DNA of 64,000 bases from Phycisphaerae bacterium (GTDB lineage: Bacteria > Planctomycetota > Phycisphaerae > UBA1845). Under the pieces are notes generated by a model. The model ran no database searches and was not told where the DNA came from. It saw nothing but the letters and a program-made list of their open reading frames with translations. Location: contig CAXXGO010000006.1 in assembly GCA_963666835.2 (NCBI GenBank), positions 2,272,001 through 2,336,000 of the forward strand, in the 5' to 3' direction. Within the stretch, counting starts at the first letter, position 1. Each line of letters begins with the position of its first letter. Of the stretch, positions 47,591 to 64,000 are shown in pieces. A program made the position numbers and the translations under genes.

Positions 47591-50359
47591 TCAGGGGGAC
47601 CGGTTCGGCTTACGGCGGGCGCCGAACGTGCGCAACAGAGCCGGCAGAAGCAACAGGGTTGCGGCGAAGCACCCGGTTATGCTCAACACGACCAAGCCGG
47701 CCAGGCGGGCGTTGGCCGGAACCTGCGACAGCATCAATACGCCGAAGCCCAAAGCGACTGCCAGGGCATCGATCAAGATGGCAGGCCCGGTAGCGGCAAC
47801 GGCGTCGATGATTGCCTTCTCGGCATCGTTGGTGCTCTGCCGCGCGCGCTGGTAACGCTCCAGAAGGTGGATAGCGTAATCGACGCCGATCCCCAGCGTC
47901 ATGCCGGCGAACATGGACGTGGCCACGCCCAACGGCACGCCGGCGATTCCCATAACTGCGAAGTTGACCAGCACTGCGGCAGCGCACGGCAATACGCAGA
48001 GCAGCCCCCAACGAATCGACCGCCCGAGAATGGTCGTGACCGCCAGGACGCCGACCAGAGAAAGCAGAAGCGAACGAATCTGGGTAGTGACAATCGCATC
48101 GATGAGCGTCTGGCTGACGGCCACGTCACCGGCGAATTCCAGAGACACTCCGCGAGGCCTCAATCGGGTACTCTCGTAACCGCGGATGTCGGCCATAAGG
48201 TGTTTCGTGTCGACGAAGTTGGCGTCCTTCATGAAAACGGTGACCAGGGCTCGTGCATAGTCTGAGTCAACTACCTGTTGCCGGCGGTCCTTGCCGCGGA
48301 TGCGTTCGTATTGTGACCACACCCATTTGATGCCTTCGGATTCGTCCGGGATTCGACGTTGGTCCTCGCGCAAACCGCGAGCCATTAGGTTCGCCGTCTT
48401 GATCAGATCGGCCGTGCCGATCGCGCCCCCGACGGCGTCGTCCCGATGTGACTCCACGAAATCTTCCAACTCTTCCACGAGCGTCAGGGTCTCCGGACGC
48501 ATGAAGCGGTAGGGCGCGATTTCGTAACGCAGCTCCACGTCCGCCGACGTCCGCAGCGCGATCCGGGGTGATCCGGATTTGCGGTTGACCGTAATAAGGA
48601 TCCCCTCGGGGACGCGCTCGGCCGACTCGATCCACGAGACCCAATCTCGCCATGCCCGAGGTACGCGGTCCGGCGAGGTCGGCTGAGGGGGGGCACCCTG
48701 ACGAGATAGGCGGACCTGTTGACCGACGATCCGCTCGGCATTGGCGATCGCGTCGGACGGGAGGAGTATGGTGTGATGGTCTATGGCCGCCCCCGGCAGC
48801 GTGCCGGAGAGCTTCGTGTGGTGCGTATCCAGGCAGAGCAGCAGAATATGGCTGCCGAGGAACTGCTGATTGAAGTAATCCGTCGCCTGGAAGAACTCGC
48901 TGTCGGGGGCGAAGCCGTCGATCCAACTGTCTTGAATGACAATCCGCTTCACCCCCAGCGGCGCCGCGGCCATGATAACGCCGGCGAGTGCAAGCACGGC
49001 GTAACGGTATCTGATCATCGACGCCGCGAATCGGCCGAAACGGGAATCTCGCCGTGACTGACTATTGACGGCCGCATCGAGCTGAAGTTCCCTGAGGAAG
49101 CGGCGGGGGGGCAGCAGGGTCAAACACGCTGGGATGACGGAAAGCGACCAGAGCATGCAGAAGATGATGCCGATGGCCGTGAAGATGCCGAACGCTTGAA
49201 CCGGGCCGATCGGGGAGAGCGCGAACGAAAGGAACCCGACTGCCGTGGTGACCGAGGTCTTCACGACCGGACCGGTCATTTCCTCCATGGTTGCCAGGAC
49301 GGCGTTGCGATGGTCGTCGTAAGTTCGGGCTCGAAGCTCCTCAATGTAGCGAGCGGTGATGTGGATCTCGTCGGCCACTCCGATAGCGGTGAGAATCACC
49401 GGCAGCACTGCGATGGTGAGATAGACCGGCACCCCAATCCAGCCCATCAGACCGAACACGACCGCCAGGCATGCTCCCACCTCCACAAGAGGTAACGCGA
49501 CCCCGATTACGCTCCGAAAGCTGACCAGAAAAACGAATGCCATGATCGCGATGGCCACGGGCACCAGTCCAACGTGACGTCCAATGAACACGCGAAGTTC
49601 GTAGAGGCTGCGGGGAACGCGCCATTCGTCCGCCGATCCGTCGGATCGGGTCCGGTAGCCGAGCACCACGGAGGGAACTCCCAGATCTTCGAGAATGTGA
49701 GTGCCCAGAAGCGCCTCGGCCACGGGAGCGCCGATTATGTCGATCCGTTCCGGGAGTTCGCCTTGGGCTCGCACGATGTCGCGGATCTTCCGCACCAACC
49801 CGGTCCGATCGGCATCAGCAGGTACTCCGATCATGATGGCGGTGGCGTTCTCGTCCAGTGAAACCAGCGTACCGGTGAAGAGCTCGATGGCTCGCAGGTC
49901 ATCACGGAGAGTCTGGAGCGCTTCCGCAGTATCCGGGAGGGGTTCGAGCAAACGACGGACGTGCAGAGTGCCGGGTCGAACTCGGTGCCCGTATTCGGTA
50001 GCCAGTGAAAACAGATCTGTCGGGCGAACACCTTCGAGCTCTCGAAATGCGCCGGTCAGGGCCTCAACGAGAGCGACGGTATGAGCGTTGAAGATGCCGT
50101 CGGGGTGGTCCGCCCGGATGAGAACGACCACGGGGTCCTCAGTGGCGAACTCATCTCTGATTGCTCGGTCGAGGCGGATCTCGGGAGCTAGCTTGGGCAC
50201 CAGGGCGTGCCCGTCGGTGCGAATCTGCAGCCGCAATACCCCCGGGGCGATTGCCAGCGTGATAAACAACGCAACAGCGATCACCGTTTTCGGATGTTGT
50301 GTCGAATATCGGTATAGCCAGACCAAGATCTTACCGCCGGAAGAGCTTTCCGCAGTCAC
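47591..50359 (-). CDS. MMPL/RND-family transporter
   Basis: Two repeats of 1+5 TM with large soluble loops; AIGVADEIHI and LGIGVDYAIHLLERY motifs. Start uncertain: GTG 50359 chosen, ORF open to 50599. Confidence 0.88.
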   Translation of the reverse strand: MTAESSSGGKILVWLYRYSTQHPKTVIAVALFITLAIAPGVLRLQIRTDGHALVPKLAPEIRLDRAIRDEFATEDPVVVLIRADHPDGIFNAHTVALVEALTGAFRELEGVRPTDLFSLATEYGHRVRPGTLHVRRLLEPLPDTAEALQTLRDDLRAIELFTGTLVSLDENATAIMIGVPADADRTGLVRKIRDIVRAQGELPERIDIIGAPVAEALLGTHILEDLGVPSVVLGYRTRSDGSADEWRVPRSLYELRVFIGRHVGLVPVAIAIMAFVFLVSFRSVIGVALPLVEVGACLAVVFGLMGWIGVPVYLTIAVLPVILTAIGVADEIHITARYIEELRARTYDDHRNAVLATMEEMTGPVVKTSVTTAVGFLSFALSPIGPVQAFGIFTAIGIIFCMLWSLSVIPACLTLLPPRRFLRELQLDAAVNSQSRRDSRFGRFAASMIRYRYAVLALAGVIMAAAPLGVKRIVIQDSWIDGFAPDSEFFQATDYFNQQFLGSHILLLCLDTHHTKLSGTLPGAAIDHHTILLPSDAIANAERIVGQQVRLSRQGAPPQPTSPDRVPRAWRDWVSWIESAERVPEGILITVNRKSGSPRIALRTSADVELRYEIAPYRFMRPETLTLVEELEDFVESHRDDAVGGAIGTADLIKTANLMARGLREDQRRIPDESEGIKWVWSQYERIRGKDRRQQVVDSDYARALVTVFMKDANFVDTKHLMADIRGYESTRLRPRGVSLEFAGDVAVSQTLIDAIVTTQIRSLLLSLVGVLAVTTILGRSIRWGLLCVLPCAAAVLVNFAVMGIAGVPLGVATSMFAGMTLGIGVDYAIHLLERYQRARQSTNDAEKAIIDAVAATGPAILIDALAVALGFGVLMLSQVPANARLAGLVVLSITGCFAATLLLLPALLRTFGARRKPNRSP

Positions 50360-50567
50360 CTGCAGAGCGGCCGATGCTACGGGAGCCGCGGTCGGCAGGC
50401 AAACGGGCCAATCTGCAGGAATTGCGCAACCAAAAGTGGCTTGCAGCCAGACTGGCAGCCTTGAGCGAGGTCGCCCTTTGTTGACTCGCCGTGTGGGTTT
50501 GGGGGCGATGAAACGGGCCGTGAGGCTCTGTCGATAGCCGATTTCCTTCTTGTCTGGGGCTCCGCCG

Positions 50568-50576
50568 TGGTATAAT
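50568..50576 (+). promoter_or_regulatory. Putative extended -10 promoter for the DUF1702-ACP-KS operon
   Basis: TGGTATAAT (TGnTATAAT) in the divergent intergenic region, about 200 nt before ATG 50772. Confidence 0.5.
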
Positions 50577-50771
50577 CGGAGTGACACTAGCATAAGCACG
50601 CGAGGCTAAGCCTGCAGATCGTATCGCTGCCGGTTCTGTTTGGGTTGCGCAGAGGCTTGGCCGGCGGGTGAGCCGCAGCATGGTGGATTCGGCTTGCGTT
50701 CTGGCGCTGGTTGGCTCCGCGGATGGCGTGCTGGGTGTTCGGGCCGAAGCGACCGGGTTGGGTCGATTGAC

Positions 50772-51854
50772 ATGGGATATGGGATGTACATCACGCTGGT
50801 GATCGCAGCGGCGCTGGTCGTATGCCTTGGCACAGGTTGGTGGCGTGTGGGGTTCACGCCCTTTGCGATTCCCGCCCGTAAGATGACCGTCGAGCGGCTG
50901 GGACTTTGTGTCGCCGGACCGGAGGACGCGAAGCGGGTGAATGGGATTCTGGCGAGTTTCGCGGGCGGTTTCAATGCCATGATCGCGGCACGACGAATGA
51001 AGGCCGTGCGAGCCCATTGCGAGTCGATCGGTCCGCTGTATCGCTCGTTTGCGGAAGAGGGTATGGCGATGGGCTACACCCTCCGCCGCCTTTTCCGTTA
51101 CGATCCGGCCTCCTTTGAATCGCAGATTATCGAACAAGGCCCCGGTTTCCGATACCTCTACTACGTCGGCTTGGGCTTCTGGTCGGGGATCCGGAACCAC
51201 TCCGGGCAGCGTTTGACGGGCATTACGCAGGGGTTGGATCCGCTTCATCGATTCTTGTGCTTCGATGGCTACGGGTTCAACTACGCGTTTTTTGAGTACG
51301 GCAAGGACCCCGAGGTGCTTCGCCGGCTGGACGGCCTGGACGGGTACGCGCGTCACGCGGCGTATCAAGGGGTCGGGCGGGCATTCTGGTTCCTCTTCTC
51401 GGGCGACCCCGAGCGGCTTATCGAGCACGCCGCGCGGTTCGGGGAATATTCCGGAGATATTGCGGCCGGCGTCGGATTGGCGTCGGTGTTTGTCAATCCC
51501 GATCGGTTGGACACCGCCCGGGATCTGGCTAACAAGATGCCGCAAGAGTGGCACGATGACTTCCATCTGGGAATGTGTTTCGGGCTCAAAGCCCGTTCGA
51601 TTAATGATCCGGACGAGTATGCGCGAAATCTGGGGCTGCTGGATGCCGGAGGGCGTGAGGCGGTAACGGCTTCGATTCGAGAGTGTGATCGGGTCGAGGC
51701 GGCGGTTCGGGGAGAGATGGGCGAGGATGGATACCGGCGTTGGCGCGAGCAGGTAACGGCATGGATGGCTTCGAATGTTTCCTATCCGTTGACTGGAGTC
51801 GCGACGACTTCGCCGTCGGCATCGGGCCTGCCGACCGCAGTCGAAACGGCATAG
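50772..51854 (+). CDS. DUF1702-family protein (UnbL / enediyne E3-like) with an N-terminal hydrophobic anchor
   Basis: FAEEGMAM, YYVGLGF, FDGYGF, YQGVGRAFWF and GVGLAS motifs as recalled for DUF1702. Start ATG 50772 or 50784. Confidence 0.72.
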   Translation: MGYGMYITLVIAAALVVCLGTGWWRVGFTPFAIPARKMTVERLGLCVAGPEDAKRVNGILASFAGGFNAMIAARRMKAVRAHCESIGPLYRSFAEEGMAMGYTLRRLFRYDPASFESQIIEQGPGFRYLYYVGLGFWSGIRNHSGQRLTGITQGLDPLHRFLCFDGYGFNYAFFEYGKDPEVLRRLDGLDGYARHAAYQGVGRAFWFLFSGDPERLIEHAARFGEYSGDIAAGVGLASVFVNPDRLDTARDLANKMPQEWHDDFHLGMCFGLKARSINDPDEYARNLGLLDAGGREAVTASIRECDRVEAAVRGEMGEDGYRRWREQVTAWMASNVSYPLTGVATTSPSASGLPTAVETA

Positions 51855-51866
51855 AGGAGGAGCGCA

Positions 51867-52115
51867 ATGAAAGGTTATGAGGCTGCCAAAGACGAGATTC
51901 TCGAGTGGATTAGCGAGGCGATTCAGGTTCCGGTTGCGGAGATTGACCTGGATAAACCGCTCACGGACATCGGTCTCGACTCGCTCGATGCCGTGCACAT
52001 GATCGCCACAATCGAGTCCATCATTCAGAAGGAACTGCCCGAGGACATCATTCAGCGCGTAAGCTGCCTTAACGACATGCTCGATATGATGCGGGAGAAG
52101 ATGGCTGCCGCCTGA
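51867..52115 (+). CDS. Acyl carrier protein
   Basis: Acidic 82-aa protein with the GLDSLD phosphopantetheine site. Strong GAGGAGGAG ribosome binding site. Confidence 0.92.
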   Translation: MKGYEAAKDEILEWISEAIQVPVAEIDLDKPLTDIGLDSLDAVHMIATIESIIQKELPEDIIQRVSCLNDMLDMMREKMAAA

Positions 52116-52157
52116 GTTCGGTTCCAACGTGATCCGCAAGGTCGAGCGAGGAGTCGT

Positions 52158-53342
52158 ATGGCTGAAGACGTCGTCATTACCGGTCTGGGGATAGTCTCTT
52201 CCTTGGGCTGCGGGGAGCAGCGCTTCTGGGATGCGCTCTATCACGGCCGGTCCGGGGCCTCGCCGGTTGATCTTATGGATACGTCCGATCTGTCACGGAC
52301 TATCGCGTGCCAGGTACGTGACCCTATAGACGTCGAAGGGGATATGGGCAGAGCCGCCCGTCTTTCCGTTTCCGCCGCCCGCCAGGCGGTGGCTTCCGCC
52401 GGAATCGCTTCGGCCGACCTGGCGGGCAGGCACGTGGTTACGACCATCGGCACGACGATGGGTGAGACGGAGTTCATCGAAGATCGTCTTACTTCACCGA
52501 ACGCAGACTGGCTCTCGCCTCAGCACACACAGCGGATTCTTCACGGCCGGCCCGGCTCGATTGCCGAGCATGTGCGGACCGACCTTCGAATCCACGGCCC
52601 GGCCGCCGATCTGTATGGGGCGTGCGCGGCCGGCAATATGGCGATCCAATCCGCCCGACGCCGGCTGCTGGCCGGTGAAGGAGATTTTGCCCTCGCCGGC
52701 GGGGCTGATGGTTTCAGTCGATTGGCCTTCATCGGTTTCATGCGTCTGCGCGTGATGGCGGCAGAGGTTTGCCGGCCTTTCGACGAACAACGTGACGGTT
52801 TGCTCGTCGGCGAAGGGGCGGCGGTGTTCGTGTTGGAGCGAGAGTCGTCGGCGCGGGCTCGCGGAGCGCCGATCAGAGCGCGAGTTGTAGGGGGGGCGGT
52901 CACGTGTGAGGACTATCACCCGACTCGCCCGCACCCCGAGGGCGATGGGTTGAGCCGGTCGACCACCGCGGCGTTGCGCGACGCCGGGATTGCTCCCGAA
53001 GACGTGGACTATGTCTGTGCTCACGGTACGGGAACGCCGCACAACGACGCCATCGAGGTGAAGGTGATGCAGAGTTGCTTCCCACGCGGCGTGGCCTTCA
53101 GCTCGATCAAGGCGCTGACCGGGCACCCGATGGGGGCGGCCGCGGCTATGGAGGCGGCGTGTTGCGCGCTCAGCCTCGAGGCTCAGACCCTCATCCCGAC
53201 CTGGCACTTGGAGAACACGCTGCAACCCTGCATGCTGGACGCGATTCAAGGGGCGCCGCGCGCGGCGCGTGTGCGCTACGTGGTCAACAACTCCGCCGGG
53301 TTCGGTGGTTACAACAGCAGCATTGTCTTGGCGGCGGCGTAG
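52158..53342 (+). CDS. Beta-ketoacyl-ACP synthase (FabF-like KS)
   Basis: VVITGLG, GACAAG (Cys), RPFD..RDG..GEGA, HGTGT (His), KALTGH (His), NSAGFGG. Confidence 0.92.
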   Translation: MAEDVVITGLGIVSSLGCGEQRFWDALYHGRSGASPVDLMDTSDLSRTIACQVRDPIDVEGDMGRAARLSVSAARQAVASAGIASADLAGRHVVTTIGTTMGETEFIEDRLTSPNADWLSPQHTQRILHGRPGSIAEHVRTDLRIHGPAADLYGACAAGNMAIQSARRRLLAGEGDFALAGGADGFSRLAFIGFMRLRVMAAEVCRPFDEQRDGLLVGEGAAVFVLERESSARARGAPIRARVVGGAVTCEDYHPTRPHPEGDGLSRSTTAALRDAGIAPEDVDYVCAHGTGTPHNDAIEVKVMQSCFPRGVAFSSIKALTGHPMGAAAAMEAACCALSLEAQTLIPTWHLENTLQPCMLDAIQGAPRAARVRYVVNNSAGFGGYNSSIVLAAA

Positions 53343-53442
53343 TAGCCCTTCGAGTAAGCAGGACGCCGCGGCCGGTGGTTTCGCCGGGTTTCTCGGGCCA
53401 GGCTCTGGGCACGCCTACGTTCCCTGGCTATAAAGTCAGTCT

Positions 53443-54711
53443 ATGGACTCGTACCCAAGACGTGTAGTGGTTACCGGGGTCGGGCCGGTGACTTCGATCG
53501 GCACCGGTTGTGATGACCTGTGGGCGTCCCTCGACGCCGGGCGTTCGAACGTTCAGACTCGCATGCTTCCGTCGGACGTCGCTTGCGGGGCGGAGTTGCC
53601 GATTGCCGCGATGCCCGCGGTTGAGGATGTGCCGGGCCTTGCCCGTCACGTCGATTTCCTGACCGGGCAAGACTGCGCACCTTATCGCGAATTGGCGTAT
53701 GCACTTCTGGCCATCGAGCTTGCCCTGGATGATGCGGGGCTCGATCCGGGGGACAATGGCAAGCGCGTGGGGGCGGTGCAGGTCTTTGAAGCGCCCGGCG
53801 TGGAGGGAACGGTGAGCCATCTGTTCCGGCTCATGTCGATGCCGCCGCCGCCCGGAGCGCCGCCGAAGCTGTACGACCATCTGGCCTCCTACTTCTACAG
53901 CATGCAGCCGTTTCATTTCGTCCATTTAATGGGTAAAGCGTTTGGGCTGCACGGTTTTTCAACGAGTGTGCACAATGCGTGTTCATCCGGGTTGTTTGCG
54001 ATGGAAATAGCCGCCCAGCAGATTCGCGCGGGTAACGCCGACGCCATGATCGTCGTCGGCGGGGAGGCATTTGAAACCGCCGTTCGCCTGGAGTGGTTCC
54101 GCCGGCTGGAGATGTACGCTTCGGATACGTGCATGCGCCCGTTCGATGCCGAGTCTTGTGGGTTCTACGTGGGGGAGGGGGCCGGGGCCATTGTGCTGGA
54201 AGCGGAGGAACTCGCCGCCCGGCGCGGGGCGAAGCCGTACGCCGCCTACCTTGGCGGGGCTCATGCCCAGCAAGCGTGGAAGCAGACGATCCCCGACGTT
54301 CGGGCGTTGAGGCTCCGCGATGTCATCACCGAGGCATTAACCCGAGCTTCGGTCTCGCCCGCGGATCTGGACCTGATTGTGCCGCACGGAGCCGGGACGA
54401 TGCTGTGTGATGGGTATGAAGCTTCATGCCTGGCCGGGGCACTTGGCGACGCCCAGACCTCGGCAGTGGCTACCGTGTTCAAGCCGAACCTGGGTCACAT
54501 GCTGGCGGCCAGCGGGATTACCGAGACCATTTGTGCTATGCTGGCCATGAAGCACGGTCGCGTGCCCGCCACCCTCGGCTCCCGCGCCGACCGGGTGAAG
54601 CTGGCCGTGCCCCTGGTGACCGAATCCGTGACCCACCCCATACGCTTTATTCTCAAAATGTCGACCGGCTTCACCGGCCACGATGCGGCGGGTGTTCTTG
54701 GTGAGGTATGA
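53443..54711 (+). CDS. Second beta-ketoacyl synthase family protein (divergent)
   Basis: RVVVTGVG, NACSSG (Cys), RPFD, GEGAG, PHGAGT (His), KPNLGH (His), GFTG. Confidence 0.88.
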   Translation: MDSYPRRVVVTGVGPVTSIGTGCDDLWASLDAGRSNVQTRMLPSDVACGAELPIAAMPAVEDVPGLARHVDFLTGQDCAPYRELAYALLAIELALDDAGLDPGDNGKRVGAVQVFEAPGVEGTVSHLFRLMSMPPPPGAPPKLYDHLASYFYSMQPFHFVHLMGKAFGLHGFSTSVHNACSSGLFAMEIAAQQIRAGNADAMIVVGGEAFETAVRLEWFRRLEMYASDTCMRPFDAESCGFYVGEGAGAIVLEAEELAARRGAKPYAAYLGGAHAQQAWKQTIPDVRALRLRDVITEALTRASVSPADLDLIVPHGAGTMLCDGYEASCLAGALGDAQTSAVATVFKPNLGHMLAASGITETICAMLAMKHGRVPATLGSRADRVKLAVPLVTESVTHPIRFILKMSTGFTGHDAAGVLGEV

Positions 54712-57155: not shown

Positions 57156-57164
57156 TGGTATAAT
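57156..57164 (+). promoter_or_regulatory. Putative extended -10 promoter of the leader-heme operon
   Basis: TGGTATAAT ending 32 nt before ATG 57197. Confidence 0.55.
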
Positions 57165-57196: not shown

Positions 57197-57727
57197 ATGC
57201 GTAACAAGAGCAACAACGATCATGAGGGTCGTGCCGGGGTGTTCAGTCGCCTGTTCTGGGGACTGATGATCCTGGCGCATGCTCCGGGTCTGATTGCCGC
57301 GGGGCGTGCCGGGCTTATGAACGGGTTCGGGGTGGAGCTACTCAGCGGGTCCGTCCTGCTGGTTGCCTCCATGGTGTTCTTCGTTCTGAAGATCCGGGGC
57401 GTTCCCTGGCTGCGGCTGCAAACCAATCGCCGGTCTGTTATTGCGGTTTGCCTGGTGGTCATGCTGATCCACCTGGAGTGCATCAGGCCCGGCCTGCGCG
57501 GCGAATTGCTATCCCAATGCACCGTTGTTCTGGTGACGACTTCGCTGGTTTTCGCCGTGCCGCGGGGGGTGCGAAGGGTCCGCTCCTCGTTGGCAAGCAG
57601 GCATTCTTCTTCAAGCTTGCGGAGTTTCGATGACCGCCCGACCGGCGTCATCTGGCTCGACTCATACCGCCCACGTTGTTGGGTCCTCGTTCTTTCCCTG
57701 CTGCGGCTGCGCGCGCCTCCTGCGTAG
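57197..57727 (+). CDS. Four-TM membrane protein ending in a RAPP motif; candidate ribosome-arrest leader of the heme operon
   Basis: Four hydrophobic segments obeying the positive-inside rule, His28 and His92, a tail of about 54 aa ending LRLRAPPA-stop. Lies between a putative promoter and hemH. Confidence 0.7.
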   Translation: MRNKSNNDHEGRAGVFSRLFWGLMILAHAPGLIAAGRAGLMNGFGVELLSGSVLLVASMVFFVLKIRGVPWLRLQTNRRSVIAVCLVVMLIHLECIRPGLRGELLSQCTVVLVTTSLVFAVPRGVRRVRSSLASRHSSSSLRSFDDRPTGVIWLDSYRPRCWVLVLSLLRLRAPPA

Positions 57728-57891
57728 CCGACGAGGGCGTTCCGGTCCGGATTGCGTGGACTTGGGCAACGCCTCTCTCCGATTCGATTCGTTCTTGTCT
57801 TCCGACTGAGGTCTGGTTGTTAATAGCCGTAAGTGAGCCGGCACGCGGGTGCCGGAGGCTCCAAGCGGAGCCGTGGGAGGCATGGCATCAA

Positions 57892-60249
57892 ATGCTCTCG
57901 TTAAAACCGACCAGAGAATCCACCGGCGGGGGAGCCGGGGAATCGATCTCCACGTTATCGGCCACCAAGGGTGTGCTGCTCATCAACCTCGGGACTCCGG
58001 ACGCCCCCGATGTCGAATCGGTGCGCCGGTACCTGGCGGAGTTTCTGGGTGATCCCGAAGTGATCCAACTTCCGCGTGGGCTCAAGTGGCTCAATGGCCC
58101 GCTGGGGCGATTCATCGCCAGACGCCGGGCCCCTAAGTCCGCAAAGTCGTACGAGCAGATCTGGACCGAACGGGGCTCGCCCCTCGGTTCGATCAGCGCG
58201 GAACAGGCCGCGTCCCTGCAGTCGGCGATGCCCTCGGATTGGCAGGTCTTCCATGCCATGCGCTATGGGAAGCCGACGATCGCCGAGACACTCCGGCGGG
58301 TTGAGGATTCGGGGGTCGAGGAACTCGTCGTTATCCCGATGTATCCTCAGTTCAGCGGACCGACTACCGGCACGGCGCTGCGGGCGCTATACGGCAGCCT
58401 CAAGAGAGGCGGCCACCGTCTTAACGTAGCGACGCGTAACTCGTGGTACGACGACGGCGGATACCTGCACGCGCAGGCCAAGCTGATCGCCGATTACGCT
58501 CGACTGCACGGGTTGAGCCCGGAAGATACTCATCTCGTGTTCTCTGCCCATGGGCTGCCGGTGTCCTACGTGGAACGCGGCGACCCGTATCCGGATCACG
58601 TGAACCGCACGGTGGAGTTGGTCGCACAACGCCTCGGCTGGCCCGAAGAGCGCCGGACCTTGGCCTTCCAAAGCCGCGTGGGTCCGACGGCATGGCTGAC
58701 GCCGAATACCGAAGACGTGCTCAGGGAGTTGGGCGATCGCGGGGAACGGCGGGTTCTGGTTTGCTCGGTCAGTTTCACTACCGATTGCCTCGAGACTCTC
58801 GAGGAGATCGATCTGAAGTACCGAGAGATGTTCGAGCGTGACGGCCGGGAGATGTTCCTCTGTCCCGCGTTGAACACCAGCCGCGATTTCATCGCGGCCC
58901 TCAAGAACCTGGCGCTTCGGGGTCCTCAGGCGGTCAAGTCGTGGGGAGCGCGAATGCACCCGTTGTTGAAACCGGCGGCACAGCCCCTTTCGGCTTCTGA
59001 GCATGTCGACTCGCTCGTGTTTGTCGGCGTATCGATGAAGAGCCGGGTCGGTGACGGCAGCGGTCCGGAGCTGATTCACGAAGACGAGCGCGGTCTCGAG
59101 AAACTCAAGAAACCACACGATGAGATCCCCGGGATTCTCCAGGGAATCTGCGGTCGCCGCGGCGCGCGGGAGGCGTTCGTGTGGAACACCTGCTATCGGT
59201 TCGAGTTCTACGGCTGGGAGAGTGATTCCGCGGCCGGGCCCGACGATTGCGTGGTGGCCCGCGTCTGTCAGCAAGTGTTCGCCGGCGACATTCCGGAGGA
59301 TGTCTCGGTGAACGTCCTTCGCGGTCGGGAGGCGTGGCATCATCTGGTGCGCACGGCGGCGGGCCTCAACAGCGGTCTGGCGGGGGATCATGACGTCGTC
59401 GAGCAGCTTCGCACTGCGCACAACCTTGCTCAGCGCGCGGGGACTGCGGGGGTGTTGACCGATCGTCTGGTCAGCGAGGTTACCGAGTTGGAGCGCCGCC
59501 TGCGCAGCGAGACTGCGTGGGGTCGGTTCGACCCCGGCTATTGCTACGCGGCCATGTCCCGGCTTTTGGAGTCAGATGGAATCGACCTTCGCGAGAGTCG
59601 CATACTGGTTGTCGGTGGCTCAACGACGTCGCGATCCGTGCTATCGGCGCTGATTGATCGGTTCGGTGTGCCGGAGCGGCAGTTGACGTTGGCCTATCGT
59701 GGCCACGGCGGCGGGCAGATCAAACTTCTGCGCAGGGCGATTCGCGGCGGACGGCGCCTGCGGGTGCAGTCGTACGGTGAGCCGCAATTGGTGCAGGCGG
59801 TGGCGGAGGCGGATGTGGTGATCTTCGGGATCGATCGCGACGAGCCGGTGCTCGATGCGGGGGCGATCCGGGAGATGCGTGATTTCGCGGATCGGCCTTT
59901 GTTTGTGGTAGACTTCAACACTTTCGGCTCGACCCGCGGATGGGAGGCGGTGTCGGGAGTAACCGTTGTTGATGCGAACCGGCTGGCACAGACGGTTGTA
60001 GATTATACGAACGCAATGTGGACGGACGCGGAGTTTGCCGGAGCTCTGCGGGAGGCAGAGGATTGGATCGCGGAGCACCTGCCGCCGTCTGTCGAAGTGG
60101 ACAAACGCCCGCCGGGCTGCCCCGGCAGTATGGAAGCCGCGGCCGACTCCGGATTGTTGGGGCCGCGGGAGCGTTGGCTACGGTGCGTGCAATGTGTCGG
60201 GAACCGTTCGGTCGACGAGCGAGTTTCGGTCAGGAGCGGAGTATCATGA
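57892..60249 (+). CDS. hemH: Ferrochelatase fused to a C-terminal divergent glutamyl-tRNA reductase (HemA)-like domain
   Basis: N-half: GVLLINLGTP, AMRYGKP, PMYPQFS, FSAHGLP, GDPY, AFQSR, FTTDCLETLEEID. C-half: NTCYRFEFY, HLVRTAAGLNS and a Rossmann-like ILVVGG. GGAGG at 57876-57880, ATG 57892. Confidence 0.88.
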   Translation: MLSLKPTRESTGGGAGESISTLSATKGVLLINLGTPDAPDVESVRRYLAEFLGDPEVIQLPRGLKWLNGPLGRFIARRRAPKSAKSYEQIWTERGSPLGSISAEQAASLQSAMPSDWQVFHAMRYGKPTIAETLRRVEDSGVEELVVIPMYPQFSGPTTGTALRALYGSLKRGGHRLNVATRNSWYDDGGYLHAQAKLIADYARLHGLSPEDTHLVFSAHGLPVSYVERGDPYPDHVNRTVELVAQRLGWPEERRTLAFQSRVGPTAWLTPNTEDVLRELGDRGERRVLVCSVSFTTDCLETLEEIDLKYREMFERDGREMFLCPALNTSRDFIAALKNLALRGPQAVKSWGARMHPLLKPAAQPLSASEHVDSLVFVGVSMKSRVGDGSGPELIHEDERGLEKLKKPHDEIPGILQGICGRRGAREAFVWNTCYRFEFYGWESDSAAGPDDCVVARVCQQVFAGDIPEDVSVNVLRGREAWHHLVRTAAGLNSGLAGDHDVVEQLRTAHNLAQRAGTAGVLTDRLVSEVTELERRLRSETAWGRFDPGYCYAAMSRLLESDGIDLRESRILVVGGSTTSRSVLSALIDRFGVPERQLTLAYRGHGGGQIKLLRRAIRGGRRLRVQSYGEPQLVQAVAEADVVIFGIDRDEPVLDAGAIREMRDFADRPLFVVDFNTFGSTRGWEAVSGVTVVDANRLAQTVVDYTNAMWTDAEFAGALREAEDWIAEHLPPSVEVDKRPPGCPGSMEAAADSGLLGPRERWLRCVQCVGNRSVDERVSVRSGVS

Positions 60250-61667
60250 GCGCGAGTATTTCAGACGCAGACTTGGCGATTTTTCGCAGATATGCCGGGC
60301 TGTCGCTGCCTCGTCATGTGTCGTACCCGATGCCAACTTGGTGGCAGGATGTTGATGAGACCGAGGCGGCGGCGCTGTACGAGGTGAGCCGGGGAGAACC
60401 GGCCAATGACCTGTCCCTGTACGTGCACGTTCCGTTTTGCGAGAAGCTGTGCAAGTTCTGCGCTTGTACCCGAGTGGTTCTACCCAAGGATAAGTCCGGA
60501 GCGACCGAGCGGGTCGAGGCTTATCTGGCGGCGATGGAACGAGAAATCGCGTGCCGGGCGGATCTGGCGGGTGATGGGCGCGCGTTGCGGCAAGTCCACT
60601 GGGGCGGAGGAAGCCCGCTGTATCTGACCTCAGAGCAGATGAGCAGGATTCAGAATGCCATCAGCAAGGCATTCTCATTGGCTCCGGATGCCGAGATCGC
60701 CGTCGAGATCGATCCGCGTCAGGCTACTCGGGAGCGAATCGAAGGGCTCCGCCGCTTGGGTTTCAACCGTATCTCGCTGGGCGTGCAGGATTTCAACGAG
60801 CAAGTCCAGGAACACGTGCATCGCGTCCAGCCTTTCGAGTTGGTTCGCGACACGGTCGAGGCCTGCCGCGCGGCGGGCTTCGCAAGTGTCAACTTCGATC
60901 TGATCTACGGCCTTCCGTACCAGACCGTCGAGACGGTGCGCGATGCCGTTGAACGATCCATCGGCTTGTCCCCGGATCGTGTCGCCTACTACCACTATGC
61001 CCAGATTCCCGAGAAGATCGCCACGCAACGGGGGATGGACTATACGAAACTCCCCGATAGCGACACCAAGCTGGAGATGTTCCTTTCCGGCGTGAGTCAG
61101 TTCGAGGAGGCCGGGTACGAGTTCGTCGGGCTGGACCATCTGGCTAAGCCGGACGAATCTCTGGCCCGGGCTCGTGCGGAAGGCACCCTTCAGCGCAACT
61201 TCCAGGGTATGACGACTGGGGGCGGTTTGGATCTCATCGCTGTTGGAGCGTCATCCATCAGTCATCTGGCGGGCGTGGGGTTTCTTCAGAACACCCGGGA
61301 TATTGCGGCATACGTGGAGAGCCTGGAGAACGGGAAAGGGCCGATTCACCGGGGGAAGCGTTTCACTCGTGATGATCTGATCCGTCAGGCCGTGCTCGCC
61401 GACCTCTACTGCCTGACTGAGGTTCGCGCTGATCGTATCGAGCGGCAGTTCGGCATTGTCTTCGGCGAATACTTCGCTCGGGAGCTCAAGATTCTAGAAG
61501 AGCTGGAGAAGGATGGGCTGATCGTGCGTGGCGCGGACGAGACGATTCGGGTAACTTACCCTCTCGGACGGGTGCTCCTTCGCAATATTGCGGCCGTGTT
61601 CGATGCGTATCTTGCTCCGGATGCATACCGCGCCGGAGAGCGCGAGTGCTTTTCCGCCAACGCCTAG
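60246..61667 (+). CDS. hemN: Oxygen-independent coproporphyrinogen III dehydrogenase (radical SAM)
   Basis: LYVHVPFCEKLCKFCAC, HWGGGSP, EIDPR, RISLGVQDF, DLIYGLPYQT, LQRNFQG. ATGA overlap with the hemH fusion. Confidence 0.92.
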   Translation: MSASISDADLAIFRRYAGLSLPRHVSYPMPTWWQDVDETEAAALYEVSRGEPANDLSLYVHVPFCEKLCKFCACTRVVLPKDKSGATERVEAYLAAMEREIACRADLAGDGRALRQVHWGGGSPLYLTSEQMSRIQNAISKAFSLAPDAEIAVEIDPRQATRERIEGLRRLGFNRISLGVQDFNEQVQEHVHRVQPFELVRDTVEACRAAGFASVNFDLIYGLPYQTVETVRDAVERSIGLSPDRVAYYHYAQIPEKIATQRGMDYTKLPDSDTKLEMFLSGVSQFEEAGYEFVGLDHLAKPDESLARARAEGTLQRNFQGMTTGGGLDLIAVGASSISHLAGVGFLQNTRDIAAYVESLENGKGPIHRGKRFTRDDLIRQAVLADLYCLTEVRADRIERQFGIVFGEYFARELKILEELEKDGLIVRGADETIRVTYPLGRVLLRNIAAVFDAYLAPDAYRAGERECFSANA

Positions 61668-61785
61668 TGCTGCGCCACACCCAGGGTCTCGGGTGTGCCT
61701 GCTCGTGAGCAGTGCATGGACGGGACGAGGTGTGGATTGCCCCCGGACCTTTACACATGGCCAAACGCCGGTAGAAGCTTCCAAC

Positions 61786-62820
61786 ATGAAGAACGACCTT
61801 CTGCTCCGAGCAGCGCGGCGCGAGCGTACCGTGCGAACGCCCGTCTGGTTGATGCGCCAAGCCGGCCGGTTCGATCCGCGCTACGGCGAGATTCGTCGGA
61901 AGTACGACTTGCCGCTTGAAGAGCTCTTTCGAAGACCTGATGCCGCGGCGGAGATCTCACTACTTCCCCGGCGATTGGGCGTTGACGCCATAATCTTCTT
62001 CCAGGATATCCTCACGCCGCTGGCGCCGATGGGGGCGGAGTTCGTGTTTCGACCCGGTCCCGTATTGGAAACGCCCTTGCGCGAGCCAAGTGATGTCGAA
62101 GCCCTCCGGCCGTACGATGTTGATTCGCATCTCGGTTTCGTTACCGAGACGCTCAAACTGGTTGCCGGGGCTTTGGATGGAGAGTTGCCGTTGCTCGGTT
62201 TTGCGGGAGCCCCGCTGACTCTGGCGTTCTTCCTCATCGAGGGACGTAGCCCTGGTGTAGAAGCCGATCGTGCATTGGGTATGATGCGATCGGACCCGAG
62301 CACCTTCCGCAGGCTGCTTCGTTTGTTGACGGACATGACCGTTGACTATCTGGCGTTGCAGATTGAAGCTGGGGTTGATGCTGTTCAGTTGTTTGAATCA
62401 TTGGCCGATCGGGTCTCGCCGGAGGAGTATTCTGAGTTTGCCCTGCCCTGCCAGGTTGAGATATTCTCAAGACTGGGGTCGCGGGTTCCGCGTATCCTGT
62501 TTGCGAAGGACCTTCCGTCGGTGGACCCGATGGCCGCCTCGGGAGCGGATGTGTTGAGCATAGGGTCCCGGTTGGACTTGGCTGAGGCCGGAAGACGGTA
62601 TGGTGATCGATTCGCACTTCAAGGCAATGTCGATAACTACCTTCTCAGGGACGGTAGTCTGGAGGAGATCGCCGCAGCGGTGCGAGCCTGCGTCGAAGCC
62701 GGTGGGAATACGGGCCACATCCTCAACCTCGGACATGGGATTCTCAAAGATACGCCGTTCGAGAATGTGCGTCAGTTCATCGAAACTGCTAGAATGGATG
62801 CCAACGACTCTGGGGGTTAA
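61786..62820 (+). CDS. hemE: Uroporphyrinogen decarboxylase
   Basis: PVWLMRQAGR, DAIIFFQDIL, LLGFAGAPLT, LQGNVD, HILNLGHGI. Confidence 0.95.
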   Translation: MKNDLLLRAARRERTVRTPVWLMRQAGRFDPRYGEIRRKYDLPLEELFRRPDAAAEISLLPRRLGVDAIIFFQDILTPLAPMGAEFVFRPGPVLETPLREPSDVEALRPYDVDSHLGFVTETLKLVAGALDGELPLLGFAGAPLTLAFFLIEGRSPGVEADRALGMMRSDPSTFRRLLRLLTDMTVDYLALQIEAGVDAVQLFESLADRVSPEEYSEFALPCQVEIFSRLGSRVPRILFAKDLPSVDPMAASGADVLSIGSRLDLAEAGRRYGDRFALQGNVDNYLLRDGSLEEIAAAVRACVEAGGNTGHILNLGHGILKDTPFENVRQFIETARMDANDSGG

Positions 62821-62843: not shown

Positions 62844-64000
62844 ATGACGGACACCTTGCGAGACGTCATCGTCGTTGGCGGTGGGATCAGCGGTCTGACC
62901 ACGGCATGGTACCTGAAGCACGCCGACGTCGATGTCTGCCTGCTCGAGGCCGGCGATTATGCCGGCGGGGTCACGCGCACGGAGCGGCGCGACGGCTTCC
63001 TGCTGGAGAAAGGCCCGTTCAACGTCATAGTCCGAGATCCGGATTTCGAGACGTTGCTCGAGGGGGTCAGTGACGAGACTGACGTTGTCTCGGCGAGTCG
63101 GGCAGCCCGGGCGCGGTATCTGTACCGGAAAGGGCGCCTCTCGGCGGTGCCGACCAATCCGGTGGCGCTGGCGACCACGCCGCTGTTGAGCTTCGGGGCG
63201 AAATGCCGACTTGTGCGTGGATTGTTGGGCAGCCGGCGTTCGACTCGGATTGAGGAGACCATCGAACAGGTTGGGGCGCGACGCTTCGGGACCGAAGTAT
63301 CCGACACGATGATCAGTGCGGTCATCTCGGGGATATTCGCGGGGGACATTCGGCAGTTGAGTCTCAAAGCGTGTTTCCCGAGTGTCGCCCGGATCGACGG
63401 ACGAGCCCGAAGTCTGGTCGCCTACGGCCTGACTTCCCCATTCCGCCGCAAACGCTCTTCTCCGGAATCTCAACCCAGGCGGTGGCGGGGACTGGTGAGT
63501 CTTAAGGGTGGTCTGGGGACTTGACCCAGGCGCTGGCCCGCACGCTTGGTGACGATTGCATGACCGGTTGCCGGATCGACGAGATCCACGCGACCGATCA
63601 GGGCTATCAAGTAGTGTACAGCGATCGTGAAGGGGCGGTCGGTTCGGCGTACTGCCGCCGGTTGGTTTTGGGAACGGCCGCGTCGGAAGCCGCGCGCTTG
63701 CTCGGTCCGGTCGTGCCGGATGCTGCGGAACAGCTCATGACGATCGAGAGCGTTCCGATGCTCGTGTTGAACCTCGGTTTCAGGCGGGCGGACATCGGTC
63801 ATCCTCTTAAGGGTTTCGGTTTCCTGGTTCCGCGGAACGAGCCGGAGTACCCCTTGATGGGCATTCTCTGGGCCAACAGCATTTTCCCACACCATGCTCC
63901 GCCGGACCACTGCCTGATCCGCGTGTTTATTGGCGGCAGCCGTGATCCGAATGCCATCGAACGCAGCGATGACGAGTTGCTGGCGTCGGCGATGGATGCC
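62844..64000 (+). CDS. hemY: Protoporphyrinogen/coproporphyrinogen oxidase (HemY-type flavoprotein); frameshifted near 63520 and running off the window
   Basis: VVGGGISGL FAD motif, GFLLEKGP, ISGIFAGD. The frame stops at 63524, but HemY-like sequence (LTQALARTLG..GFGFLVP..NSIFP..RVFIGG) continues in the -1 frame from 63521 to the window end. Confidence 0.85.

Follow-up and report, generated by a model that had tools for sequence, protein, structure and literature searches.

Introduction

In known RAPP-type arrest peptides, the ribosome halts with the first proline of the motif in the P-site and the second in the A-site, and in ApdA, ApdP and SecM the RAPP core lies near the C terminus of a membrane-targeted leader that heads secDF or secA (PMC10951233). 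The motif alone is described as insufficient for arrest, with upstream context also mattering, and all seven of the RAPP-type Streptomyces proteins that were tested arrested (PMC12992588). Some leaders of this kind respond to a ligand. In CruR of Bordetella pertussis, which is associated with copper genes downstream, a stretch richer in C than in G at the end of the open reading frame (ORF) holds a Rho site and is followed by a gap of 162 bp (PMC9426467), and arrest of CruR has been demonstrated (PMC12992588). The nascent chain of CutF, a DUF2946 protein of Rhodobacter capsulatus, is described as sensing its ligand across the membrane and stalling at a proline-rich C terminus, and copper induces this stall, which frees a ribosome-binding site (bioRxiv 10.1101/2025.02.05.636593). 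Four peptides of Streptomyces lividans (SLIV_18480, SLIV_27375, SLIV_33595 as well as SLIV_33605) combine four predicted helices and a C-terminal RAPP or RGPP with conserved candidate ligand residues that match the downstream gene, and in SLIV_18480, a RAPP peptide, the conserved histidines were modelled as a copper site (PMC12992588). In heme biosynthesis, the membrane protein HemX of Bacillus and Staphylococcus takes part in heme-dependent, post-transcriptional control of synthesis by setting the GtrR protein level through an unknown route, and an arrest motif is not part of the account given of it (PMC10991733).

The sections of that review that we drew on treat HemX and two-component systems as controls of heme synthesis and do not contain the words "leader" or "riboswitch" (PMC10991733). 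Likewise, the words heme, ferrochelatase and porphyrin are absent from the main text of the survey of RAPP proteins (PMC12992588). The source table for Fig. 4B of that survey, as far as we used it, lists at least five RAPP ORFs upstream of ferrochelatase, without remark; one of these rows is identical to P0004, a relative of the leader reported here, one is unrelated, and three more are, judged by eye, probably members of the same family. Among the titles and abstract openings that our literature search covered, which mostly excluded subscription papers, we found no heme-responsive arrest peptide and no gene cassettes of the kind described below.

Here we describe a leader ORF in a Phycisphaerae bacterium that shares several features with CruR. 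In both, an upstream ORF closes with RAPP and a few further residues and keeps candidate ligand residues at a defined spacing from this motif; both have a C-over-G stretch at the ORF end and an intergenic region of similar length (162 bp in CruR, 164 here), and both head supply genes that are expected to be off when the ligand is present. In contrast to CruR, the leader has no DUF2946 match and no CxxC, is predicted to consist of four membrane helices rather than a signal peptide and a soluble domain, places His92 of its histidine pair 80 residues from RAPP, with a looser spacing (71-91) than the 45 ± one or two residues of CruR, and precedes heme genes rather than copper genes. The leader resembles CutF in that a nascent chain would sense a ligand across the membrane and would stall at a C terminus rich in proline, but our folding test of the leader gave no unmasking of the kind reported for CutF. 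It resembles ApdA, ApdP and SecM in the position of the motif and in membrane targeting, but none of 59 leader loci heads secDF or secA. The four-helix peptides of S. lividans are similar in architecture, but by their description metal, thioredoxin or sigma-factor genes lie downstream of them, with no heme context. HemX and the leader have no Pfam or NCBIfam family in common.

Results

The leader ORF and the operon behind it

We analysed a window of 64,000 nucleotides from contig CAXXGO010000006.1 of GenBank assembly GCA_963666835.2, to which coordinates refer unless a contig is named. A first-pass annotation of this window had proposed that an uncharacterised ORF in front of heme genes is a RAPP ribosome-arrest leader that monitors tetrapyrrole synthesis. 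Translation confirms that the ORF (57197..57727, + strand, 531 nt) encodes 176 aa and that it ends in R-A-P-P-A-stop (LRLRAPPA-stop), with the codons of R172-A173-P174-P175, the candidate arrest site, at 57710..57721 (+). The promoter-like motif that had been reported before the ORF, an extended −10 element of the form TGnTATAAT (TGGTATAAT), is present at 57156..57164 (+) and ends 32 nt 5' of the leader ATG. This element is a putative one, read from the sequence. The pattern is rare, with 25 copies in the 6.0-Mb genome when both strands are counted. A consensus scan that requires a −35 box called no promoter at the leader ORF, and no corresponding −10 motif was evident at a fixed position in the homologs.

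The heme genes follow on the same (+) strand in the annotated order, but not directly, as had been claimed, since an intergenic region of 164 nt (57728..57891) with an SD-like GGGAGG at 57875-57880 lies between them and the leader. The first of these genes encodes a hemH-hemA fusion (ferrochelatase and glutamyl-tRNA reductase; 57892..60249, +; PF00762, E 2.9e-98, and PF05201, E 1.6e-19), with ATG 57892 as its best start. It is followed by a hemN-type radical SAM enzyme (60243..61667, +; PF04055, with HemN_C under its cut-off), the uroporphyrinogen decarboxylase gene hemE (61783..62820, +; PF01208, E 2.4e-97) and a hemY-type flavoprotein oxidase (62844..64000, +; PF01593) that extends past the window end, just beyond which lies hemB (G000:C6:2336320-2337288). 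The hemY gene reads as two frames with a break at 63514-63524. Contigs of all three runs compared, from two studies, hold one extra base there, and the split is therefore most likely an assembly error. The fusion itself, at 57892-60249 and at 10 related loci, puts the enzymes of the final and the initial step of heme synthesis on one polypeptide, and in its reductase part Pfam matches only the N-terminal domain and, weakly, an NAD-binding one. Elsewhere in the window, an MMPL/RND exporter and a DUF1702 protein are encoded at 47591-54711, together with ORFs that by eye resemble an acyl-carrier protein and two ketosynthases; this cluster probably serves secondary metabolism.

RAPP stands in the last 10 residues of 46 of the 88,526 stop-to-stop frames of the genome (AAPP in 57). 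It is thus frequent in arbitrary frames, and the motif alone being weak evidence, the case for the leader depends on conservation among its homologs. Other ORFs of the same genome (G000) also end in this way. Two related multi-helix membrane ORFs with RAPP or RGPP ends (G000:C6:1043989-1044753 and 759540-760430, +) stand before secreted proteins; they are unmatched by the leader profile and lack its histidine pair, and are probably a second undescribed family of RAPP leaders. A short ORF with a CxxC as well as a C-terminal RAPP, likewise before a secreted protein (G000:C6:908480-908815, +), looks CruR/DUF2946-type.

Conservation and predicted topology of the leader family

Our first search returned 16 proteins, and a profile search (E<=0.001) returned 680 representatives, 150 of them listed. 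We counted conservation over a pooled set of 283 distinct sequences or, where stated, over a set of 164 homologs. Neither Pfam nor NCBIfam holds a family for the leader, no family of either matched more than 3 of the 150 listed members, and the PDB holds no solved-structure relative by sequence. Membership in DUF2946 was considered and rejected: the leader has no Pfam match to that family at E<=0.1, DUF2946 does not appear in the 25 families listed out of 69 for the 150 members, and any CxxC occurs in only 8 of 283 sequences.

The first-pass annotation had pointed to the RAPP ending, two histidines and the length of the tail as features to look for in homologs, and all of them are conserved. 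Of the 164 homologs, 143 carry R[AG]PP within their final 25 residues, and in the pooled set RxPP is found there in 273 of 283 (RAPP in 227, RGPP in 23, RPPP in 17, RSPP in 5, RCPP in 1 and none in 10), 1-4 residues before the stop codon in 245 of those 273. His28, encoded at 57278..57280 (+) within the first predicted transmembrane helix (TM1), is kept in 282 of 283 sequences; His92 in TM3 (57470..57472, +) in all 283; Lys65 in 260; and Met24 in 61% of the family. The two histidines are exactly 64 residues apart in 129 of the 164 homologs, and from His92 to the arginine of RxPP there are 71-91 residues, with a mode of 80, which is also the distance in the leader itself. The tail from P122 to R172 measures 50 residues, equal to the family median in the 118 of 283 rows where it could be measured. 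Otherwise the membrane core is far better conserved than the C-terminal tail, which is poorly conserved up to RxPP. Two members, L055 and L071, keep both histidines and have lost RxPP. In one clade (L062, L065, L067, L069, L075, L076, L083, L086 and relatives) Lys65 is replaced by Glu and both histidines are kept.

The family-wide load of Lys and Arg is 3.8 at the N terminus, 0.8, 4.3 and 0.9 in loops 1-3 and 4.6 in the tail. This basic and acidic alternation of the loops between four hydrophobic stretches fits an N-in, C-in topology, so that TM1 and TM3 would be parallel, and the charge distribution orients both TM1 (His28) and TM3 (His92) from inside to outside. An AlphaFold2 model places helices at 9-42, 46-67, 78-96 and 101-137 (mean pLDDT 75, pTM 0.51), and fold searches with this model returned only generic helical hairpins (best Z 7.7), which show neither likeness nor novelty. 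Covariation over 282 leader sequences was dominated by invariant columns and did not place the helices. In membrane proteins that bind heme b through two histidines, these residues are invariant, lie in membrane helices that run in the same direction and flank the heme pocket from opposite sides within a fold like that of cytochrome b; mutating them abolishes the low-spin heme spectrum. In the arrangement found in cytochrome b, the histidines stand on parallel helices of a four-helix bundle. From the corresponding anatomy of the leader, we infer that His28 and His92 could ligate heme. The ribosome exit tunnel holds 30-40 residues. As TM4 lies about 50 residues before the arrest site, the membrane domain would be entirely outside the tunnel and could fold in the membrane.

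Genomic contexts of the leader

Within the class, 53 of 401 genomes have the leader (59 matches); 63 other genomes belong to the same order as ours, and 49 of the 53 are among them. A phylum-wide sample gave the leader in 3 of 401 genomes. Because these genomes are related and incomplete (90-100% complete), the counts here and below are not independent. A metagenome scan with leader P0001 returned one short locus, and one close relative is labelled Phycisphaerales by its source. An ESM Atlas cluster (rank 3; feature score 0.92) with 206 members, most commonly from Acidobacteriota, may extend the family beyond Planctomycetota.

Of the 59 matches, 10 lie in front of a hemH-hemA operon and 48 in front of secreted-protein cassettes, and a contig end truncates the remaining one; in the other 58, the operon 3' of the leader is on the same strand. 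A genome of another class (G544) adds an 11th hemH-hemA case, and the linkage of homologs to hemH that the first-pass annotation had anticipated is thus found in 11 genomes. Among 68 genomes tested, all 10 that have both ferrochelatase and the leader have the leader directly upstream of ferrochelatase. Conversely, all 43 leader-bearing genomes without hemH and hemE carry one of two cassettes, c1 or c3. Both operon types occur together in G092 and G321. Stand-alone hemH genes without a leader were seen in G197, in G064 and as a second copy in G056, and in G040 heme oxygenase is followed by a c6-c3 cassette without a leader. A quick tree built from 62 leaders requires 4 changes of the hemH-type label, and well-supported branches force at least 2 of these, which indicates that the cargo behind the leader was exchanged repeatedly, or lost. 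Downstream of none of the 59 matches did we find a sec or yidC gene or a recognised iron or copper transporter. The idea that the leader monitors tetrapyrrole synthesis therefore needs to be widened: its link to hemH stands, but synthesis alone does not account for the 48 of 59 matches that precede cassettes, mostly in genomes without hemH, and a monitor of heme supply, made or imported, fits better. Collectively, the leaders are a real, conserved, undescribed and unnamed family of RAPP leaders tied to heme supply.

Secreted-protein cassettes and heme metabolism of their hosts

The cassettes encode either c1 (~450 aa) or c3 (~390 aa), the latter usually with c6 (~250 aa). The tails of these proteins are dockerins or of the PEP-CTERM type, and in most cases the gene of a prepilin-type protein, c2, comes next. 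At one locus, a partial second copy of c2 lies a few kb 3' of the cassette (L040:1916-2395). Of 69 genomes, 29 were found to have c1 and 20 to have c3, and a single genome had both. When searched from the c1 side with a model of the membrane part of the leader alone, 61 of 69 c1 loci had the leader directly upstream, 7 had no contig room for it and 1 lacked it, many of these genomes being the ones counted above, which had helped to build the model. By source label, 68 of these 69 loci are Planctomycetota-type and 1 is from Alphaproteobacteria.

A model of c1 (pLDDT 86) is a small beta-barrel that resembles many ligand-binding and outer-membrane barrels, including NspA (Z 8.5, rmsd 3.4, 152 aligned) and YceI-type proteins (Z 7.4-7.7). 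Its matches to hemophores are weak (HpuA 4.8, HtaA 4.4, HphA 4.3 and a Haemophilus haemophore 4.1), so that the argument for heme capture by the cassettes comes from their distribution and not from structure. Foldseek found no match for the c1 model, c1 has no invariant histidine, and c1, c3 and c6 have no solved relative apart from the dockerin/EF-hand tail. An atlas search with c3 gave weak CBM96-like leads only. Among the cassette genes and 22 scanned neighbours, heme oxygenase was the one known heme-binding or transport family detected.

We detected ferrochelatase in 12 genomes of 68 tested and hemE in 13 of 69, and hemE and hemH were absent from 46 of the 48 cassette genomes. In 23 of the 43 leader-bearing genomes without hemH and hemE, hemB and hemC were also not found; the other 20 have hemB and hemC only, and AhbD was not found in any of five hemB-positive genomes tested. 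All 23 genomes that lack the four genes encode heme-copper oxidase subunit I and thus appear to need outside heme. These apparent heme auxotrophs include near-complete genomes of one to seven contigs, such as G048, G099, G134 and G275. Heme oxygenase is encoded in 40 of 48 cassette genomes compared with 1 of 21 others, and its gene lies directly upstream of the leader in G078, G148, G336, G251 and G190 and of the cassette in G040. Five genomes (G183, G326, G361, G371 and G391) have the oxidase and no hemE, cassette or leader, which means either that the cassette is not the only route to heme or that these assemblies are incomplete. Judged by genes and their distribution, the cassettes would be a candidate for an undescribed heme-uptake system.

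Composition and folding of the leader transcript

A stretch richer in C than in G covers the tail codons and the stop codon of the leader (57579..57734, +), where 78-nt windows reach C30/G20, and by its base composition is a candidate Rho-utilisation site. Across the family, C minus G in the 78 nt around the leader stop codon has a mean of 0.168 and is positive at 56 of 58 loci; the control, 823 long frames of G000, has −0.041. The C/G ratio at fourfold-degenerate sites climbs from about 0.8 to 1.7 at the RAPP codons, indicating that the bias is not purely an effect of the amino acids encoded. The first 60 nt past the stop codon are only mildly C-rich (C/G 1.14), and the signal falls on the last codons and the first 15 nt. 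The genome encodes Rho.

The gap between the leader and the next gene ranges from 86 to 551 nt with a median of 201 nt over the 50 loci used for this measurement and for the folding tests; 5 further loci were dropped, for which no downstream start was placed. No intrinsic terminator was called within 57728..57891, and the intergenic region folds no better than its shuffles (z −0.9 and −1.0). Unmasking of the ribosome-binding site in the manner of SecM was tried as a mechanism and rejected, with blocking of the RAPP codons giving 9 loci up and 8 down of 50 and the control 8 up and 6 down.

Discussion

We consider it very likely that the leader controls the genes behind it through ribosome arrest. 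That it does so as a CruR-like, ligand-responsive attenuator that senses heme is, by analogy with that system, a probable reading. In such a mechanism, the four-helix domain would be inserted in the membrane during translation and the ribosome would stall at RAPP, about 50 residues past the last helix, with P174 and P175 in the P- and A-sites, respectively, if the known RAPP peptides are a guide. At low heme, the stalled ribosome would cover the C-rich stretch at the stop codon and block Rho, as CruR and the base composition suggest, and the heme-supply genes would be transcribed. When heme is present, it would bind His28 and His92 of the nascent domain, and folding of this domain may relieve the stall, the most conjectural of these steps; Rho would then terminate transcription in the long intergenic region. 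In its two gene contexts, the same leader heads the route by which a genome would obtain heme, be it the hemH-hemA operon or the cassettes of surface proteins with their presumed role in uptake.

The identity of the signal is where a different ligand has to be considered. The same arrest and attenuation device could carry histidines that bind free iron or copper, ahead of cassettes that acquire metal. As described, the known ligand-responsive leaders with RAPP or proline-rich ends sense copper (PMC9426467; bioRxiv 2025.02.05.636593), and the four-helix SLIV_18480 has a modelled His/Met copper site (PMC12992588), which the 61% conservation of Met24 in our family would suit; iron, for its part, is freed by heme oxygenase and consumed by ferrochelatase. 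We nevertheless find a metal ligand unlikely, given that no recognised iron or copper transporter occurs in the 59 contexts, that CxxC is present in only 8 of 283 leaders and that cassettes follow the absence of hemE and hemH in 46 of 48 genomes. Iron shortage should moreover raise heme uptake and lower heme synthesis, and with such opposite effects a switch of single polarity could not serve both operons. Because heme shortage is the sole condition that needs both synthesis and import, we infer that the signal is heme.

Two further explanations do without a sensed ligand or without downstream control. A monitor of membrane insertion or secretion capacity, similar to SecM, ApdA or MifM and heading these operons by chance, would fit the secreted or surface proteins found in 48 of 59 contexts, the unrelated RAPP leaders that precede other secreted proteins in G000 and a tail whose length lets each of the four helices engage the translocon. 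It is improbable nonetheless, as no sec or yidC gene lies behind any locus, the products of the hem operon are soluble enzymes, two polar histidines within membrane helices are invariant, and our folding tests gave no sign that blocking the RAPP codons exposes the downstream ribosome-binding site. We give similarly little credence to the possibility that the finished protein is what matters, as a small heme-binding membrane chaperone or shuttle or as a HemX-like regulator, with RAPP limiting only its own synthesis. The much better conservation of the membrane core than of the tail, the two members that keep both histidines without RxPP (L055 and L071) and the example of HemX as a membrane protein that controls heme synthesis post-transcriptionally (PMC10991733) would be in keeping with such a role. 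Against it, every complete locus has its downstream gene on the same strand and well separated from the leader (86-551 nt over 50 measured loci), RxPP holds its place 1-4 residues from the stop codon in 245 of 273 sequences, the C-over-G signal is visible at synonymous sites, and the cassette loci offer no HemA to act on.

Taking the heme-sensing attenuator together with the cassettes, we tentatively propose, with somewhat more doubt than conviction about the whole, that a nascent bis-histidine four-helix bundle loads heme in the membrane while its ribosome sits on RAPP and so switches off heme synthesis or import, and that c1, or c6 with c3, together with a prepilin-like partner, would constitute an undescribed form of heme scavenging by PEP-CTERM- or dockerin-anchored surface proteins in an uncultured order of Phycisphaerae whose members would largely be heme auxotrophs. 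If this is true, a heme-responsive leader would add a cofactor to the signals read by stalled ribosomes, with a membrane domain as the sensor, and would bear on how RAPP arrest is released outside protein-localisation pathways, a question left by the survey of RAPP proteins in the part considered here (PMC12992588). Heme capture would also be a candidate function for three unannotated families of surface proteins. Finally, a prediction of our model is that heme must be supplied to many members of this uncultured order, which may serve as a hint for their cultivation and for which there is a precedent (bioRxiv 10.1101/2021.01.11.426183).
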